From the NCBI GenBank assembly GCA_963664875.1, contig OY761611.1:3424001-3488000 (forward strand): DNA of 64,000 nucleotides, written 5' to 3'. Source of the stretch: Candidatus Kapaibacterium sp. (GTDB lineage: Bacteria > Bacteroidota > Ignavibacteria > Kapaibacteriales > UBA2268). The position numbers are program-made. Position 1 is the stretch's first letter; the number at the start of each line of letters is the position of its first letter. Shown here piece after piece: positions 27,001 through 30,000 of the stretch.

Positions 27001-30000
27001 ATGAGTACCTTGCTAATATGCTGATAACAATGAACATGGAAACTCTCACACGCTACAATGTCAAAAAAATAGTAACTATATGCCCTCACTGCTTCAATAC
27101 ATTCAGAAATGAATATAAGGACTTTGGTGGCGAGTTCGAGGTAGTGCATCATACAGAATTTTTGAATCAGCTGATAAAAGACGGTAAACTCACAATCAAA
27201 GCCGGTAGCAAAATGGAAATAGCATACCATGACTCTTGCTATCTCGGCAGATATAATGACGTTTACGAAGCACCTCGCAACGTAATCGAAAGCGTGCCCG
27301 GGCTAAACATACTCGAAGCCGACAGACACCACGACAGAGGTCTTTGCTGCGGTGCCGGTGGTGGCCAGATGTTTATGGAAGAAACAGAAGGCAAGCGTGT
27401 AAATATTGAAAGAACCGAAGAACTTTTAGCTACCGGAGCAACTACAATAGCTGCTAACTGCCCATTCTGCATGACAATGATCAGCGATGGTGTAAAATCG
27501 AAAGACAAAGATGAAGAAGTAAAAGTTTTGGATATCGCAGAAATACTATTAGAACAAGTAGAGTAGAAATAGTATTTCACTTACATAATCCGGTACTTAT
27601 GTTTATAGCATAATATCTTCTGATAAAGAAGTAAACACCGTCAAATATATTATTGCAAAATAGCAAAAATATGTTTATTTTTTAAGCACTGAGTAGTTAA
27701 TTCTACTCAGTGCTTTTTATAATTTGGAGAACCAACCAATGCGAAATATTTTTCAATTTAACTATTTATCTACACTGCTACTTAAAAGGAATTTATAATT
27801 TTATAAAAATATATAGTTTGACGAATTGACAAAAAAGAGAGGCTGAAAGCCTCAAAATAGATTAGCCCATGGCAACGCCATGGGTATAAGGCATCAAAAA
27901 AATTAGAGCCCTGAAAGGGCGGGAAGAAATGGCATGGCACACTCTTTAGGGTGTCCCGGGGCGATGCCCCTAGCTAATATCTTTCAGCCTTACAGACTGT
28001 ATGCAGAGTCCTTTTCAATTTGACAATTTATCCGCTCTGCTACTTAAATTGAATTTATAATTTTATAAAAAAATATATAGTTTGACGAATTGACAAAAAA
28101 GAGAGGCTGAAAGCCTCAAAAGAGATTAGCCCATGGCAACGCCATGGGTATAAGGCATCAAAAAAAATTAGAGCCCTGAAAGGGCGGGAAGAAATGGCAT
28201 GGCACACTCTTTAGGGTGTCCCGGGGCGATGCCCCTAGCTAATATCTTTCAGCCTTTCAGGCTGTATGCACAGTCCTTTTCAATTTGACAATTTATCCGC
28301 TCTGCTACTTAAATTGAATTTATAATTTTATAAAAAAATATATAGTTTGACGAATTGACAAAAAAGAGAGGCTGAAAGCCTCAAAAGAGATTAGCCCATG
28401 GCAACGCCATGGGTATAAGGCATCAAAAAAATTAGAGCCCTGAAAGGGCGGGAAGAAATGGCATGTCACACTCTTTAGGTGTCCCGGGGCGATGCCCCTA
28501 GCTAATATCTTTCAGCCTTTCAGGCTGTATGCAGAGTCCTTTTCAATTTAACTATTTATCTGCTCTGCTAGTAAAAGGAATTTATAATTTTATAAAAAAA
28601 TATATAGTTTGACGAATTGACAAAAAAGAGAGGCTGAAAGCCTCAAAAGAGATTAGCCCATGGCAACGCCATGGGTATAAGGCATTAAAATAAATTAGAG
28701 TCCTGAAAGGGCGGGAAGAAATGGCATGGCACACTCTTTAGGGTGTCCCGGGGCGATACCCCTAGCTAATATCTTTCAGCCTTTCAGGCTGTATGCAGAG
28801 TCCTTTTCAATTTAACTATTTATCTGCTCTGCTATTTAAAAGGAATTTATAATTTTATAAAAAAATATATAGTTTGACGAATTGACAAAAAAGAGAGGCT
28901 GAAAGCCTCAAAAGAGATTAGCCCATGGCAACGCCATGGGTATAAGGCATCAAAAAAAATTAGAGCCCTGAAAGGGCGGGAAGAAATGGCATGGCACACT
29001 CTTTAGCCGAAGTATATATTCACATTGTTTTCAGTACAAAAGACAGAGCACAAATAATAAAAAATGATTTAAGTGCCAGATTGCATTCCTACCTGGGAGG
29101 AATTTGCAATGGATTAAATTGTACCCCTCTCTCAATTGGAGGTTATGAGGATCATATTCATATACTTTGTGTTTTATCAAAAAAGACTAGCATTGTTGAA
29201 CTTGTTGAAAATCTCAAAAAACAATCTTCACGATGGATAAAAGAGCAGGACGCAAAATATTCATCTTTTTATTGGCAGGCCGGATATGGAGTATTCTCAG
29301 TAAATAAATCTCAAATATCTGATATTCGAAACTATATCGAAAATCAAGTCGAACATCACAAACGTGTAGATTTCAAACAGGAATACAAAGCCATCTTAGA
29401 CAAATTAGGAGTAAAATATGATGAAAGATATTTGTGGATATGACCATCTTGCCGCCCTTTCAGGGCTCTGGTAGTTTGGTTTGGGGTGTCCCGGGGCGAT
29501 GCCCCGGGCTAAGATCTCTCAGCCTTTCAGGCTGTATATTTAATTGAAATTTTGGACTTTACAGTCCCTCAGTGACCTTAGATCACACGTAGTAAACCTG
29601 CCCAGCCCGTAATCTACTTTGCGCACGCCGTGGTCGCCCAGTTCGCTTTCTCTGTCAAGTTCCTTGCCGAGGTAGGCTGTGCGCTGGTCGTCGTTACCAC
29701 TTATGGCAGGAGCAAGCTTTCCAAATGGAAGATAATCAAAAATTATTTTTTAAGAAAGACTCAAGCCTGAAAAAGTGTAAGTCTTTCTATGAGTTATACT
29801 AGTACAGGGAATATTATTAATTTCCTAGGCTTAAAATATAATTTCTTTGCTTTTTAGGCAAAAAATTAGCGATAAACATTAATAATATGTTTTGATTTTT
29901 AACTACTCTGTAATTACCACATTGAATTTCACCATTCTCAAACACTTTCACAGTTGCAAAGCTACTATCAATATCATCCAGATCGTCATATAGTAATATA

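Follow-up and report, generated by a model that had tools for sequence, protein, structure and literature searches.

What are the hairpin repeats that enclose a small transposase gene of Candidatus Kapaibacterium sp., and how are they related to the enzyme it encodes? The DNA analysed, called the window here, is a 64,000-nt stretch of assembly GCA_963664875.1 (contig OY761611.1, 3,424,001-3,488,000); window position 1 is contig position 3,424,001, and longer numbers such as 3603664 are contig positions. The gene, Y1a (28991..29443, + strand; ORF call and profile matches), encodes a 150-aa Y1/HUH (IS200-like) transposase that scores above the curated cut-off of PF01797 Y1_Tnp (100 bits, E 1.3e-28, cut-off 23) and above that of NF033573 IS200/IS605 (78 bits, cut-off 55). 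The RAYT (class 2) profile NF047646 REP_Tyr_transpos gives Y1a 21.3 bits, below its cut-off of 80. The motifs DHIH, WQ and YIENQVEHH agree with the signature of subclass 1.2 (Y---Q--HH, WQ, DH[IV]H, ~148 aa), an assignment made by comparison with Table 1 and the text of PMC6006769. The tyrosine motif is thus Y---Q and not the Y---NP of RAYTs. Residues D54, H55, H57, W95, Q96, Y115, Q119, H122 and H123 are invariant in a 10-protein alignment, and the HUH motif D54-H55-I-H57 and tyrosine Y115 are intact in all ten. The nearest solved protein is IS608 TnpA (E 1.1e-7), with ISDra2 TnpA also among the nearest; TnpAREP is absent from the solved relatives at E<=0.01. Two further Y1 genes are present in the genome, Y1b (3603664-3604116, − strand) and Y1c (2425435-2425884).

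The genome-wide survey's note had described a 92-nt module of three hairpins, inverted on either side of the Y1 genes. The left module of Y1a (28896..28979, + strand, nhmmer) contains, by sequence inspection, HP1 GAGGCTGAAAGCCTC (28895-28909), HP2 CCCATGGCAACGCCATGGG (28922-28940) and HP3 GCCCTGAAAGGGC (28965-28977), and its HP3 end lies 10 nt upstream of the Y1a ATG. The full inverted right module (29451..29533, − strand, nhmmer) presents HP3' at 29454-29466, HP2' at 29490-29508 and HP1' at 29520-29534, with compensatory changes in HP1 (CAGCCT.../...AGGCTG) and HP2 (CCCGGGGC...GCCCCGGG). Pairing is conserved within the genome: 96.0% of cells pair in 22 copies, 6 of 19 pairs are altered on both sides, and none of 500 shuffles matches the observed pairing. 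Across genomes, in an alignment (A3) fitted to the model, the paired cells amount to 97.3%, a share that drops to 38-52% once the partners are slid, and all 19 pairs have changed on both sides. Directly 5' of HP2 stands a foot of T (0.87), A (1.00) and G (0.94), in an alignment picked by a model that already contained TAG; the base before it is variable (T 0.41, G 0.27, A 0.20).

The first two hairpins had been equated with the Rfam motif Acido-Lenti-1 (RF01687). HP2 and HP1 supply the 8-bp and 5-bp hairpins and the GGCUAA linker of that family along the full-length model, and 14 of the 27 Rfam matches at E<=10 in 27500-29800 belong to it. The best match in the window lies in the right flank (29490-29534, + strand, model 1-46, 34.6 bits) and the left flank has five − strand matches (26.7-28.8 bits); these six best matches all align model positions 1-46 and conserve the linker. 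The identity thus holds in its full-length match and its co-occurrence, but every RF01687 match in the window is below the cut-off (all under 37 bits), and the window contains no Rfam match at gathering level. Under strict filters the whole genome yields 18 RF01687 matches at E<=1e-3, one of them above the cut-off (39.3 bits). None reaches the cut-off in 15 related loci, and three Acidobacteriota loci of the first set have no RF01687 match even at E<=1.

The co-occurrence is stronger in another phylum. Across 151 Acidobacteriota genomes, RF01687 and the Y1 gene are present together in 29, the gene alone in 2, the repeat alone in 10 and neither in 110 (odds ratio 160, Fisher p 2.5e-20); the corresponding counts in 151 Bacteroidota genomes are 22, 46, 7 and 76, a weaker association (odds ratio 5.2, p 3e-4), and these p-values are overstated because related genomes are not independent. 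None of 14 control genomes has an RF01687 match. At 20 Acidobacteriota Y1 loci, 14 matches occur in 7 loci, and the 9 above the cut-off lie at the gene borders of 5 of the 20, where chance would place ~0.004 matches next to a given gene. All 12 matches within 135 nt of an Acidobacteriota Y1 gene point away from it. RF01687 is found without the Y1 gene in 10 of 39 Acidobacteriota and 7 of 29 Bacteroidota genomes (six of these from one genus), and one genome, G092, has 31 matches without a subclass 1.2 gene; such gene-negative genomes carry other, weaker Y1_Tnp genes, none adjoining the matches. Because the module flanks the Y1 gene, disperses and includes Acido-Lenti-1, the latter looks like part of a transposase-linked DNA repeat, with HP2 and HP1 on the other strand.

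Acido-Lenti-1 was proposed as an RNA, rated 'RNA? y' by Weinberg 2010 (Table 1, PMC2864571); one 2026 preprint continues to describe it as 'of unknown function', and in another its annotated copies in Tannerella are interpreted as possible regulators of proteases. A structured RNA acting as small RNA, terminator or mRNA stabiliser, or hairpins that control or insulate the Y1 gene after transcription, would suit several features of the locus. Three terminator-like sites occur in the window against 1.0 expected from shuffles, namely HP1 read outward from the gene on both sides, with a T-rich run after it, and HP3 on the − strand. The expression of IS200 is itself controlled by 5' hairpins and antisense RNA, and HP3, so close to the start codon, could mask translation initiation. 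Wobble pairs are about three times commoner on the model strand (30 G:T versus 9 A:C), which could reflect RNA; however, this strand is opposite to Rfam's, the alignment is model-fitted and most of the wobbles are loop-closing pairs. The upstream copy would also need transcription away from the gene, and Cloacimonadota Y1 loci have a promoter-like site, TTGACA-17-TAATAT, between the left module and the ATG, which would leave the left hairpins outside the mRNA. Arrays, gene-less inverted doublets, dozens of copies scattered over unrelated sites and tight co-occurrence with a gene for a single-strand DNA nuclease are the behaviour of REP-type DNA and are not expected of a trans-acting RNA gene. 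An RNA role is unlikely. The link to the transposase, as the note had it, is sound in the association with the Y1 gene, while the module would act as DNA rather than RNA.

The tandem array announced in the note is confirmed at 27750..29006 (+ strand), where a 265-nt period is repeated 4.8 times with 96% matches and runs into the Y1a gene. Each unit contains, in order, an AT-rich stretch of ~90 nt, a left module in the order HP1-HP2-spacer-HP3, the initial 16 nt of the gene and a right module that lacks HP3 (HP2'-HP1'); as it comprises both ends without the gene, it is a MITE/REPIN-like gene-less copy of the whole unit. At the unit junction gtcc|ttttcaattt the outer end of the right side meets that of the left, and the array junctions are identical in contigs from runs X1, X2 and X5. 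Left-type modules occupy 27840..27922 in unit 1 (full-length nhmmer match; RF01687 27838-27884, 28.8 bits), 28104..28187 in unit 2 (RF01687 28102-28148), 28369..28451 in unit 3 (RF01687 28367-28413) and 28631..28714 in unit 4 (RF01687 28629-28675), the last three scoring 26.7 bits, as does the module of the gene-bearing unit (RF01687 28894-28940); the nhmmer matches are on the + strand and those of RF01687 on the − strand. Partial right-type modules (HP1'-HP2') lie on the − strand by nhmmer at 27948..27998 in unit 1 (profile positions 2-56), 28215..28263 in unit 2, 28479..28526 in unit 3 and 28742..28790 in unit 4, with + strand RF01687 matches in the last three (28222-28264 and 28485-28527, 19.4 bits each; 28762-28791, 18.9 bits).

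Both borders of this region point to other parts of the genome. The left flank, 27587..27749 (+ strand), is 97.1% identical to contig 3604462-3604289, which adjoins Y1b, and was copied from a locus resembling that of Y1b; within it lie the final ~75 nt of a coding end, a terminator-like hairpin and the stretch from which the 48-nt direct repeat of Y1b is formed. Judged from its translated tail, the coding end may be secretion-tail-like (T9SS C-terminal domain). A third copy of this sequence, at contig 3225616-3225777, is unoccupied. On the right, the outer segment of the unit (29535..29567, + strand) has Y1b homology to about ...ttggact, and its end adjoins CTCAGTG. A different dispersed repeat abuts it (29568..29766, + strand); it starts CTCAGTGACCTTAG and has 20 further matches in the genome.

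Copies of the module are dispersed far beyond the locus. Three rounds of nhmmer found 48, 56 and 59 matches in the whole genome, with none in the reversed genome, and covariance model R1, built from this genome only, found 58. The 59 copies fall into 40 loci, and 58 of them are outside ORFs of at least 120 aa, which make up 86% of the genome. The window itself holds a solitary partial module (HP1-HP2; 10775..10823, + strand, contig 3434775-3434823, nhmmer profile positions 1-49) and a solitary fragment of HP1 and half of HP2 (16146..16181, + strand, contig 3440146-3440181, nhmmer profile positions 2-37). The 56-59 intergenic copies of the note are therefore real in number and position, but many are embedded in longer non-coding repeats (~790 nt, ~260 nt) or duplicated 1.5-kb gene units, so passive spread is possible and part of the copy number is such duplication. 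HP3 was considered as a pre-existing target hairpin and rejected: 37 of 44 HP3 motifs lie in or within 40 nt of a module, and 7 are solitary.

The inverted arrangement is general, with exceptions. Y1b is flanked as Y1a is. Y1c has modules at both borders, but these are partial and opposite in orientation (HP1 next to the gene), and the gene sits between two tandem doublet units, not within one. The upstream flank was also compared with the reverse-complemented downstream flank, within and between loci. Inverted flanks exceed the 95th percentile of between-locus scores in 41 of 42 loci from five phyla: the median score is 84 within a locus, against 18 between loci (95th percentile 29) and 27 for a direct-orientation control. 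The arrangement is present in Bacteroidota, Acidobacteriota, Cloacimonadota, a 'Firmicutes' bin and Armatimonadota, so the claim that the arrangement recurs at Y1 homologues across phyla is borne out. At 44 Y1 loci outside this genome R1 gave 57 matches, which are spread over 27 of the loci; the remaining 17 have none. Thirty-eight of the matches lie within 150 nt of the gene, 37 of them with HP3 gene-proximal; the opposite geometry appears in one R1 match in L066 and in at least three loci of Bacteroidota (G314 C14, G317 and G245, judged by match coordinates). In the family sample, R1 matches occur in 7 of 28 Y1-positive genomes and in 0 of 33 others. All four main claims were reproduced, mostly by routes independent of a model fitted to this genome. 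Other genomes of the same genus show no synteny at the Y1a locus, and the gene next to it is only ~80% identical in them.

Dispersal can be followed in single genomes. G080 has 18 copies with sharp ends and unrelated flanks, which indicates dispersal as a discrete unit; the nearest relatives of this genome are ~79% identical, and the intergenic DNA around the module does not align. G061 contains six gene-less doublets with the geometry of the Y1 flanks, ~150 nt from start to start. These doublets and the array units of the window have inverted ends, no gene and several copies, as REPIN/MITE-like elements do.

The sequence comparisons establish that gene and repeat are associated, that the geometry is inverted, that the hairpins covary, that copies are dispersed at unique sites and that one insertion has an empty paralogous counterpart. 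Insertion sequences can use repeats as targets; IS1397 inserts into REPs. The module could likewise be an independent host repeat, multiplied through duplication or a different enzyme, in or next to which a Y1 cassette prefers to insert, the flanking modules being the halves of a split target. In support, the gene lies exactly at the centre of a palindromic doublet that is gene-less elsewhere, Y1c has one tandem doublet unit on either side, repeat populations exist in gene-negative genomes, and many copies here were spread within longer repeats. However, the left and right flanks of a locus match each other far above those of other loci and diverge together with the protein (Spearman 0.36 for gene and flank divergence; 0 of 999 Mantel permutations as high), which is in keeping with ends that move together with the gene. 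Both modules, moreover, came with the Y1b insertion to a site whose paralogue has none, and the co-occurrence (29 of 31 Y1-positive Acidobacteriota against 10 of 120 others) is far stronger than a target preference would require. The repeats are improbable as mere targets. A REPtron-like or IS-like system, in which the subclass 1.2 Y1 (HUH) enzyme is the partner of a hairpin DNA repeat, is the likely explanation, and a REPtron-like system is new for this Y1 subclass.

The Y1b unit is shown to be an insertion with a 48-nt direct repeat, an observation new here. Compared with the empty paralogous site (3225616-3225777), it is an 807-nt insertion, counting one copy of the 48-nt direct repeat. No empty site was found in the 15 kb around Y1b in contigs of runs X1, X2, X5 and X6 (X5 is a poorer assembly of identical sequence; X6 contains a relative whose contigs are broken at the element); the joints at the element of the Y1b region in these contigs are the array deletion junction and the unit junction. 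The right ends of the Y1a and Y1b units both abut CTCAGTG (two cases only), and no flank motif is shared by the 18 copies of G080. The direct repeat and the co-copied left flank are unlike the products of classical IS200/IS605 transposition.

These products bear on how far the enzyme resembles an ordinary transposase. An autonomous IS200/IS605-type IS with miniature derivatives, the whole unit moved by 'peel and paste', would share its mechanism with the REPtron-like or IS-like partnership and differ from it only in the degree of enzyme domestication. In its favour, the protein qualifies under the IS200/IS605 equivalog model but not under the REP-transposase model, the solved proteins closest to it are the TnpA proteins of IS608 and ISDra2, Y1a and Y1b are 96.6% identical over 755 nt with both ends included, and one genome (G001) has up to 11 Y1 matches. 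Single modules also favour one orientation, in which the model strand falls on the presumed lagging-strand template (23 of 34 single-orientation loci, p 0.058; 23 of 31, p 0.011, when the duplicated copies at 2.59-2.66 Mb are collapsed), a bias that is suggestive only, since origin and terminus come from GC skew alone and one copy lies at the inferred origin. On the other side, the ends of IS200/IS605 elements are not inverted repeats, and their insertion leaves no duplication; inverted ends are found here, along with the direct repeat of Y1b. The same-strand end hairpins, lack of target duplication and insertion 3' of a fixed short target that mark IS200/IS605 elements are not what is found. 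Paralogues within a genome are mostly divergent (from 226 down to 92 bits in G001), and gene-less repeats far exceed genes in number. Quentin 2018 (PMC6006769) reports an average of 1.7 copies and 36% identity for subclass 1.2. An ordinary IS is a doubtful account of the locus, though a better one than an RNA or a target.

Recurrent breakpoints also speak for the partnership of enzyme and repeat. Eleven of 15 partial copies end at or within 12 nt of the spacer-side foot of HP2, and the other 4 stop within HP2. Three HP3-only copies break near the same foot, two at the identical nucleotide in different flanks, and the array deletion junction likewise lies near it. The HP2-HP3 spacer (19-27 nt) is as unrelated between copies as flanking DNA, despite near-identical hairpins. 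The module claimed as one 92-nt unit therefore keeps its three hairpins but is really two conserved blocks: the spacer between them is not inherited with the hairpins, a feature new here. Copying of a plain 90-nt unit does not predict such turnover. The spacer was rejected as a target duplication, its similarity to its own ±40-nt flanks being 5.67 against 5.53 to those of other copies.

We infer that the Y1 enzyme moves the repeats, and on the same footing its binding, cleavage position and active strand. If the enzyme works as IS608 TnpA and E. coli TnpAREP do, the folded hairpins would be bound on single-stranded DNA by a dimer, the repeat offering two conserved blocks, HP1-linker-HP2 and HP3, with a spacer between them. 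Recognition would involve both the 8-bp HP2 and, at the 5' foot of that hairpin, the nearly invariant T-A-G, and the HUH histidines (H55, H57) and Tyr115 would cut near HP2 on the spacer side, after which the ends would be rejoined. The products would be the forms observed in the genomes: gene-bearing units, gene-less doublets, single modules and head-to-tail arrays, of which the 265-nt x 4.8 array is one. A more specific and tentative proposal is that the repeat is not copied whole, the enzyme cutting at a fixed distance beside HP2 and joining the hairpin blocks to new DNA. Either two pieces would then be placed around ~20 nt of target DNA, or a junction of right and left ends would be re-formed at each event. 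The proposal draws on the spacer, the 48-nt repeat of Y1b, the arrays and the left flank that came along with the Y1a copy; if true, it would be a way of transposing or replicating single-stranded DNA for which neither IS200/IS605 elements nor REPtrons offer a described example.

A comparison with known systems places the locus between them. As in the REPtrons of E. coli and Pseudomonas (class 2), a Y1/HUH gene is flanked at Y1a by inverted copies of an intergenically dispersed hairpin repeat, which occurs as singlets, inverted REPIN-like doublets and arrays; each gene has its own repeat variant, and an xTAG may be conserved at the 5' foot of the main hairpin. In contrast to REPtrons, the protein is of class 1 (Y-Q-HH, not Y-NP), the repeat has three hairpins in two blocks with a non-inherited spacer of fixed length, genomes have several gene copies, and the foot varies in its first base (G only 0.27), whereas typical REPs have GT[AG]G there (PMC6006769, PMC3733652). 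IS608 and ISDra2 are the closest protein relatives, with subterminal hairpins likely recognised on single-stranded DNA, and the head-to-tail junctions and weak orientation bias fit replication-coupled single-strand transposition. They differ in that the ends here are inverted, one insertion has a 48-nt direct repeat, gene-less repeats dominate and no conserved target tetranucleotide was found.

Subclass 1.2 as described in PMC6006769 shares DH[IV]H, WQ, Y-Q-HH, ~148 aa, low copy number and occurrence in Bacteroidetes. That description lists no associated repeats, whereas inverted hairpin flanks are the rule here, and the subclass is also present in 31 of 151 Acidobacteriota genomes and in Cloacimonadota. 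RF01687, for its part, differs from the repeat in covering its outer two-thirds, on the strand opposite to the REP-like TAG foot. GTAG/CGTC palindromic repeats (Di Nocera 2013, PMC3733652) resemble the module in the TAG foot on HP2 and in the small HP1' and HP3' hairpins of Acidobacteriota, preceded on the other strand by CGTC(G); the sections consulted place GTAG repeats in Proteobacteria, Cyanobacteria, Chloroflexi and the PVC group only, mention no transposase found with CGTC repeats and do not describe the combined three-hairpin unit.

The association gives a testable identity to an Rfam family annotated in many genomes and corrects the only published account of Y1 subclass 1.2 found in the literature search, which is without repeats. 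With it, the REPtron concept no longer covers class 2 RAYTs alone but also takes in an IS200-like enzyme of class 1, present in at least five phyla. Enzyme and hairpins form a compact pair for studying how HUH enzymes choose single-stranded DNA, and the non-inherited spacer is a mechanistic puzzle. CRISPR-like arrays were considered and rejected: the units of the G337 array (period 66) are identical, spacer included, so that it is a plain tandem duplication. In the array of G152 C74, the spacers differ between units.

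The window's transposase gene, Y1a, is bordered on both sides by the same three hairpins. Its 150-aa ORF (28991-29443, +) matches PF01797 Y1_Tnp at 100 bits (E 1.3e-28) and passes the NCBIfam IS200/IS605 transposase model at 78 bits (cut-off 55); against the model for REP-associated tyrosine transposases it scores 21.3 bits (cut-off 80) and fails. The closest solved relatives of the protein are IS608 TnpA (E 1.1e-7) and ISDra2 TnpA, with no TnpAREP among those at E ≤ 0.01. Judged by sequence, its motifs DHIH, WQ, and YIENQVEHH are the signature of subclass 1.2, given in the accessible part of Quentin et al. 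2018 (PMC6006769) as DH[IV]H, WQ, and Y---Q--HH with a median length of 148 aa. HP1 (GAGGCTGAAAGCCTC), HP2 (CCCATGGCAACGCCATGGG), and HP3 (GCCCTGAAAGGGC) lie immediately 5' of the ATG, and the same hairpins follow the stop codon with order and orientation inverted; HP1 and HP2 of this downstream module carry compensatory changes. Y1b (contig 3603664-3604116, −) shares 96.6% identity with Y1a across 755 nt, both modules included. As the genome-wide survey's note claimed, three-hairpin modules stand inverted around these two genes. The note had assigned the same flanks to all three Y1 genes of the genome, which holds for Y1a and Y1b but not for Y1c (contig 2425435-2425884; 66% nucleotide identity). 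There, HP1' (the prime marks an inverted copy) lies 27 nt 5' of the ATG and HP1 directly after the stop codon, so two tandem doublet units flank this gene and the geometry is reversed. A same-genus relative carries two Y1c-type genes in tandem (G158:C4:223868-224997), each with this flipped geometry and with matches at its borders to R1, a covariance model built from 22 module copies, all from this genome.

The tandem array described in the note was recovered by Tandem Repeats Finder at 27750-29006 (period 265, 4.8 copies, 96% matches) as the only array reported, and its last unit continues into the Y1a ORF. Every 265-nt repeat reproduces the whole unit with the gene missing: the left module is followed by the gene's first 16 nt and then by a right module that lacks HP3. 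At the unit junction, gtcc|ttttcaattt, the right outer end is fused to the left one. Another dispersed repeat, about 100-200 nt long (29568-29766, starting CTCAGTGACCTTAG), directly follows the Y1a unit on its right; it has 20 further matches in the genome, for example at contig 3520373, 3210203, 3443984, and 3442518, and copies in same-genus relatives too.

On its left, the array is bordered by a sequence (27587-27749) with 97% identity to the left flank of Y1b, where it forms the end of an intact gene and its terminator. A third, paralogous copy of this gene end (contig 3225616-3225777) lacks the element and reads ...gaaatattttt|atactt..., exactly as does the DNA at Y1b past the second of two 48-nt direct repeats (47/48 identical). 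Y1b is thus an insertion of 807 nt, a length that includes one copy of the direct repeat. The Y1a copy brought along about 170 nt of the Y1b left flank, so its left boundary lies away from the module. On the right, both units end against CTCAGTG, in different contexts. Comparison of these sites, which draws on two or three events, shows insertion but not its route. To the right of a doublet in another genome (L080, G061:C55:31400-32200) stand three tandem copies of a unit of about 48 nt, which starts within the 3' half of HP1' and takes in adjacent flank; it resembles the Y1b direct repeat, whose start lies in the 3' half of a terminator hairpin.

The module is also a dispersed intergenic repeat, and the 56-59 copies claimed for it were borne out. 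Three rounds of nhmmer on the whole genome gave 48, 56, and 59 matches, against none in the reversed genome, and R1 found 58. The 59 copies form 40 loci, and 58 of them lie outside ORFs of at least 120 aa, which make up 86% of the genome. Among 22 copies, 96.0% of cells pair, with both-sided changes in 6 of the 19 pairs. The genome's copies are partly non-independent: about a dozen lie mid-way in a non-coding repeat of about 790 nt, about ten within a repeat of about 260 nt, and several between duplicated 1.5-kb gene units at 2.59-2.66 Mb. HP3 is missing from all 15 partial copies, which retain HP1 and usually HP2.

The first two hairpins resemble the Rfam family Acido-Lenti-1 (RF01687), which accounts for 14 of the 27 Rfam matches at E ≤ 10 in 27500-29800. 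Model positions 1-46 are spanned by the right-flank match (29490-29534, +; 34.6 bits), and the five left modules (−) reach 26.7-28.8 bits. Read outward from the gene, HP2 and HP1 thus have the Acido-Lenti-1 architecture. These scores fall below the gathering cut-off of 37 bits, so the window copies are not members under Rfam's own rule; at that threshold the window holds a tRNA gene (18046-18119, −) and a small SRP RNA (18247-18344, +), and nothing else. The note's equation of HP2 and HP1 with Acido-Lenti-1 is supported by the co-occurrence and the outward-pointing border matches described below. One rival to a DNA repeat served by a Y1 enzyme is that Acido-Lenti-1 is a structured RNA. Its best point is that HP1, read outward in the window, is terminator-like on both sides.

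The arrangement around Y1 homologues in other phyla is likewise supported. Scanning with the protein yielded 15 loci, which belong to Bacteroidota, Acidobacteriota, Cloacimonadota, Armatimonadota, and a 'Firmicutes' bin. On visual inspection, the majority have the order hairpin-linker-hairpin-spacer-hairpin-ATG, mirrored past the stop, and the stems differ considerably among phyla. Thirty further loci came from an Acidobacteriota sample. After 3 duplicates, 4 fragmentary genes, and 1 short-flank locus were left out, 42 loci entered a test that scored the 220 nt before each gene against the reverse-complemented 220 nt after it. The median score was 84 within loci and 18 between loci (95th percentile 29), and 41 of the 42 exceeded 29; a direct-orientation control gave a median of 27. 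Flank similarity correlates with protein identity (Spearman 0.36; 0 of 999 permutations as high). At 45-60% protein identity it is nearly gone, yet both ends of one locus still match each other. R1 has 57 matches in 27 of 44 Y1 loci, and of the 38 within 150 nt of a gene, 37 have HP3 gene-proximal. In the R1 alignment across genomes, which is fitted to the model, the paired fraction of cells is 97.3%, against 38-52% after sliding, and all 19 pairs show both-sided changes. Four Cloacimonadota loci (L005, L007, L008, L010) have a second hairpin nested in the HP2 loop (cccagggt-aaaagcctgaaaggcttgca-accctggg), with the left module about 64 nt from the ATG and a promoter-like site between; the site in Cloacimonadota loci reads TTGACA-17-TAATAT.

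Rfam's own model does not depend on R1. In the first 15 loci it gave no gathering-level match; at E ≤ 1, RF01687 supplied 11 of the 16 Rfam matches (from 10 of the 15 loci), in 3 loci, and none in the three Acidobacteriota loci. It was found in 4 of 5 whole Y1-bearing genomes, above the cut-off in 2, and in none of 14 control genomes. In a sample of 151 Acidobacteriota genomes, RF01687 reaches E ≤ 1e-3 in 39 (above the cut-off in 24), full-length matches to the Y1 protein profile A1 at E ≤ 1e-30 occur in 31, and weak IS200-like or fragmentary A1 matches in 10. Both gene and repeat occur in 29 genomes, the gene only in 2, the repeat only in 10 (including the unpublished G054), and neither in 110 (odds ratio 160, p 2.5e-20). 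The corresponding counts for 151 Bacteroidota genomes are 22, 46, 7, and 76 (odds ratio 5.2, p 3e-4). Both p-values are overstated because related genomes are not independent; the direction of the co-occurrence is clear. In the family of this genome, R1 matches 7 of 28 Y1-positive genomes and 0 of 33 others. Twenty Acidobacteriota Y1 loci yielded 14 RF01687 matches in 7 loci, 9 of them above the cut-off in 5 loci, and all 12 within 135 nt of a gene point outward.

The repeat takes several forms. Genome G061 has 33 RF01687 matches, six pairs of which are gene-less doublets in the (−,+) arrangement found around the gene; aligned to its own Y1 locus, they correspond to the left and right ends minus the gene. 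G080 carries single modules, whose ends are sharp and whose flanks are unrelated. Tandem arrays also adjoin Y1 genes at L004 (period 127), in G337 (period 66), and at L011. Six of the seven repeat-only Bacteroidota genomes come from one genus. All five repeat-only genomes examined have other weak Y1_Tnp matches, none adjoining an RF01687 match. One repeat-only genome, G092, holds 31 RF01687 matches, mostly single. Besides G092, RF01687 populations accompanied by no subclass 1.2 gene occur in the Bacteroidota genus g100 (G236, G251, G282, G298, G328, G355); G092, G236, and G282 have other Y1_Tnp matches of 30-50 bits, and those of g100 lie in ORFs of about 330-350 aa, not adjoining RF01687 matches.

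REPtrons and IS200/IS605 elements are well described. Encyclopaedia text on Acido-Lenti-1 mentions group II introns or reverse transcriptases nearby, not Y1 transposases. What is new is a REPtron-like system on an IS200-like class 1 enzyme, with a repeat that is Acido-Lenti-1 plus a third hairpin, and the earlier interpretation as a whole is supported with these qualifications. The accessible part of Quentin 2018 (PMC6006769) records 'REP: no' for subclass 1.2, mostly from Cyanobacteria and Bacteroidetes, and Acidobacteria and Bacteroidetes are not among the phyla named for GTAG repeats in that of Di Nocera 2013 (PMC3733652). No title or abstract opening among the TnpAY1 papers listed concerns subclass 1.2. 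The accessible Acido-Lenti-1 literature, taken apart from the supplements of Weinberg 2010, which may list neighbouring genes, offered no link to a transposase; in the parts seen, an October 2026 paper still calls the motif 'of unknown function' and another takes it as a possible regulator.

The best-conserved unpaired positions across genomes, T (0.87), A (1.00), and G (0.94), lie directly 5' of HP2, and HP1 and HP3 have GNA loops. Typical REPs are described, in the accessible parts of two papers, as carrying GT[AG]G at the hairpin's 5' foot, and a recombinant E. coli RAYT is reported there to recognize REP DNA in single-stranded form and cut it at the GTAG motif (PMC6006769, PMC3733652). Breakpoints recur at the spacer-side foot of HP2, where 11 of the 15 partial copies end and where the deletion junction of the window array also falls. 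Solitary HP3 is rare in this genome; three HP3-only copies break at the HP2 foot or 12 nt off, and two of these share the exact breakpoint nucleotide but not their flanks. HP1' and HP3' are small hairpins of one kind, and in one array a unit's HP1' doubles as the next unit's HP3'.

The spacer behaves differently from the hairpins it separates. Mean pairwise identity among 18 G080 copies is 0.89 in the HP3 block, 0.85 in the RF01687 block, 0.53 in the 19-22-nt spacer between them, and 0.52 in the outside flanks, so spacer sequences are no more alike than flank sequences; the spacing of the two blocks is constant in 18 of 22 pattern matches. Ten independent copies in this genome show the same, with 0.83 for HP1, 0.74 for HP2, 0.91 for HP3, 0.37 for the spacer, and 0.33-0.39 for the flanks. 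A spacer that is not inherited is not what plain copying of a 90-nt unit would give. Cutting and rejoining inside the spacer would predict unrelated spacers, as would the alternative of two blocks installed around target DNA. Separately, an origin of the spacer as a copy of nearby flank DNA was ruled out by comparison with the flanks of the G080 copies.

Other repeats accompany the module. The non-coding repeat of about 790 nt, at contig 3144482-3145270 and about 11 other sites, holds the module in its middle; its copies are 88-93% identical and have no ORF of at least 60 aa except one of low complexity, and three to four of them begin within the module, just past HP2. A repeat of at least 1.1 kb, seen as BLAST matches only, has six copies more than 99% identical (contig 2078561-2079672, 2085306-2086420, 2173149-2174260, 3618099-3619210, 1389327-1390427, and 1391058-1392158) and is probably a conventional insertion sequence. 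A 35-38-nt mini-element (ctaaggtcactgagcgag...gaagtg) is inserted in the HP2 loop of three modules (contig 200318-200430, 2597723-2597838, and 2663375-2663490). Next to further modules (3223827 and 3319082) it lies in the loop of an adjacent hairpin (gagacgc...gcgtctc). Its terminal motif is shared with the repeat at window position 29568.
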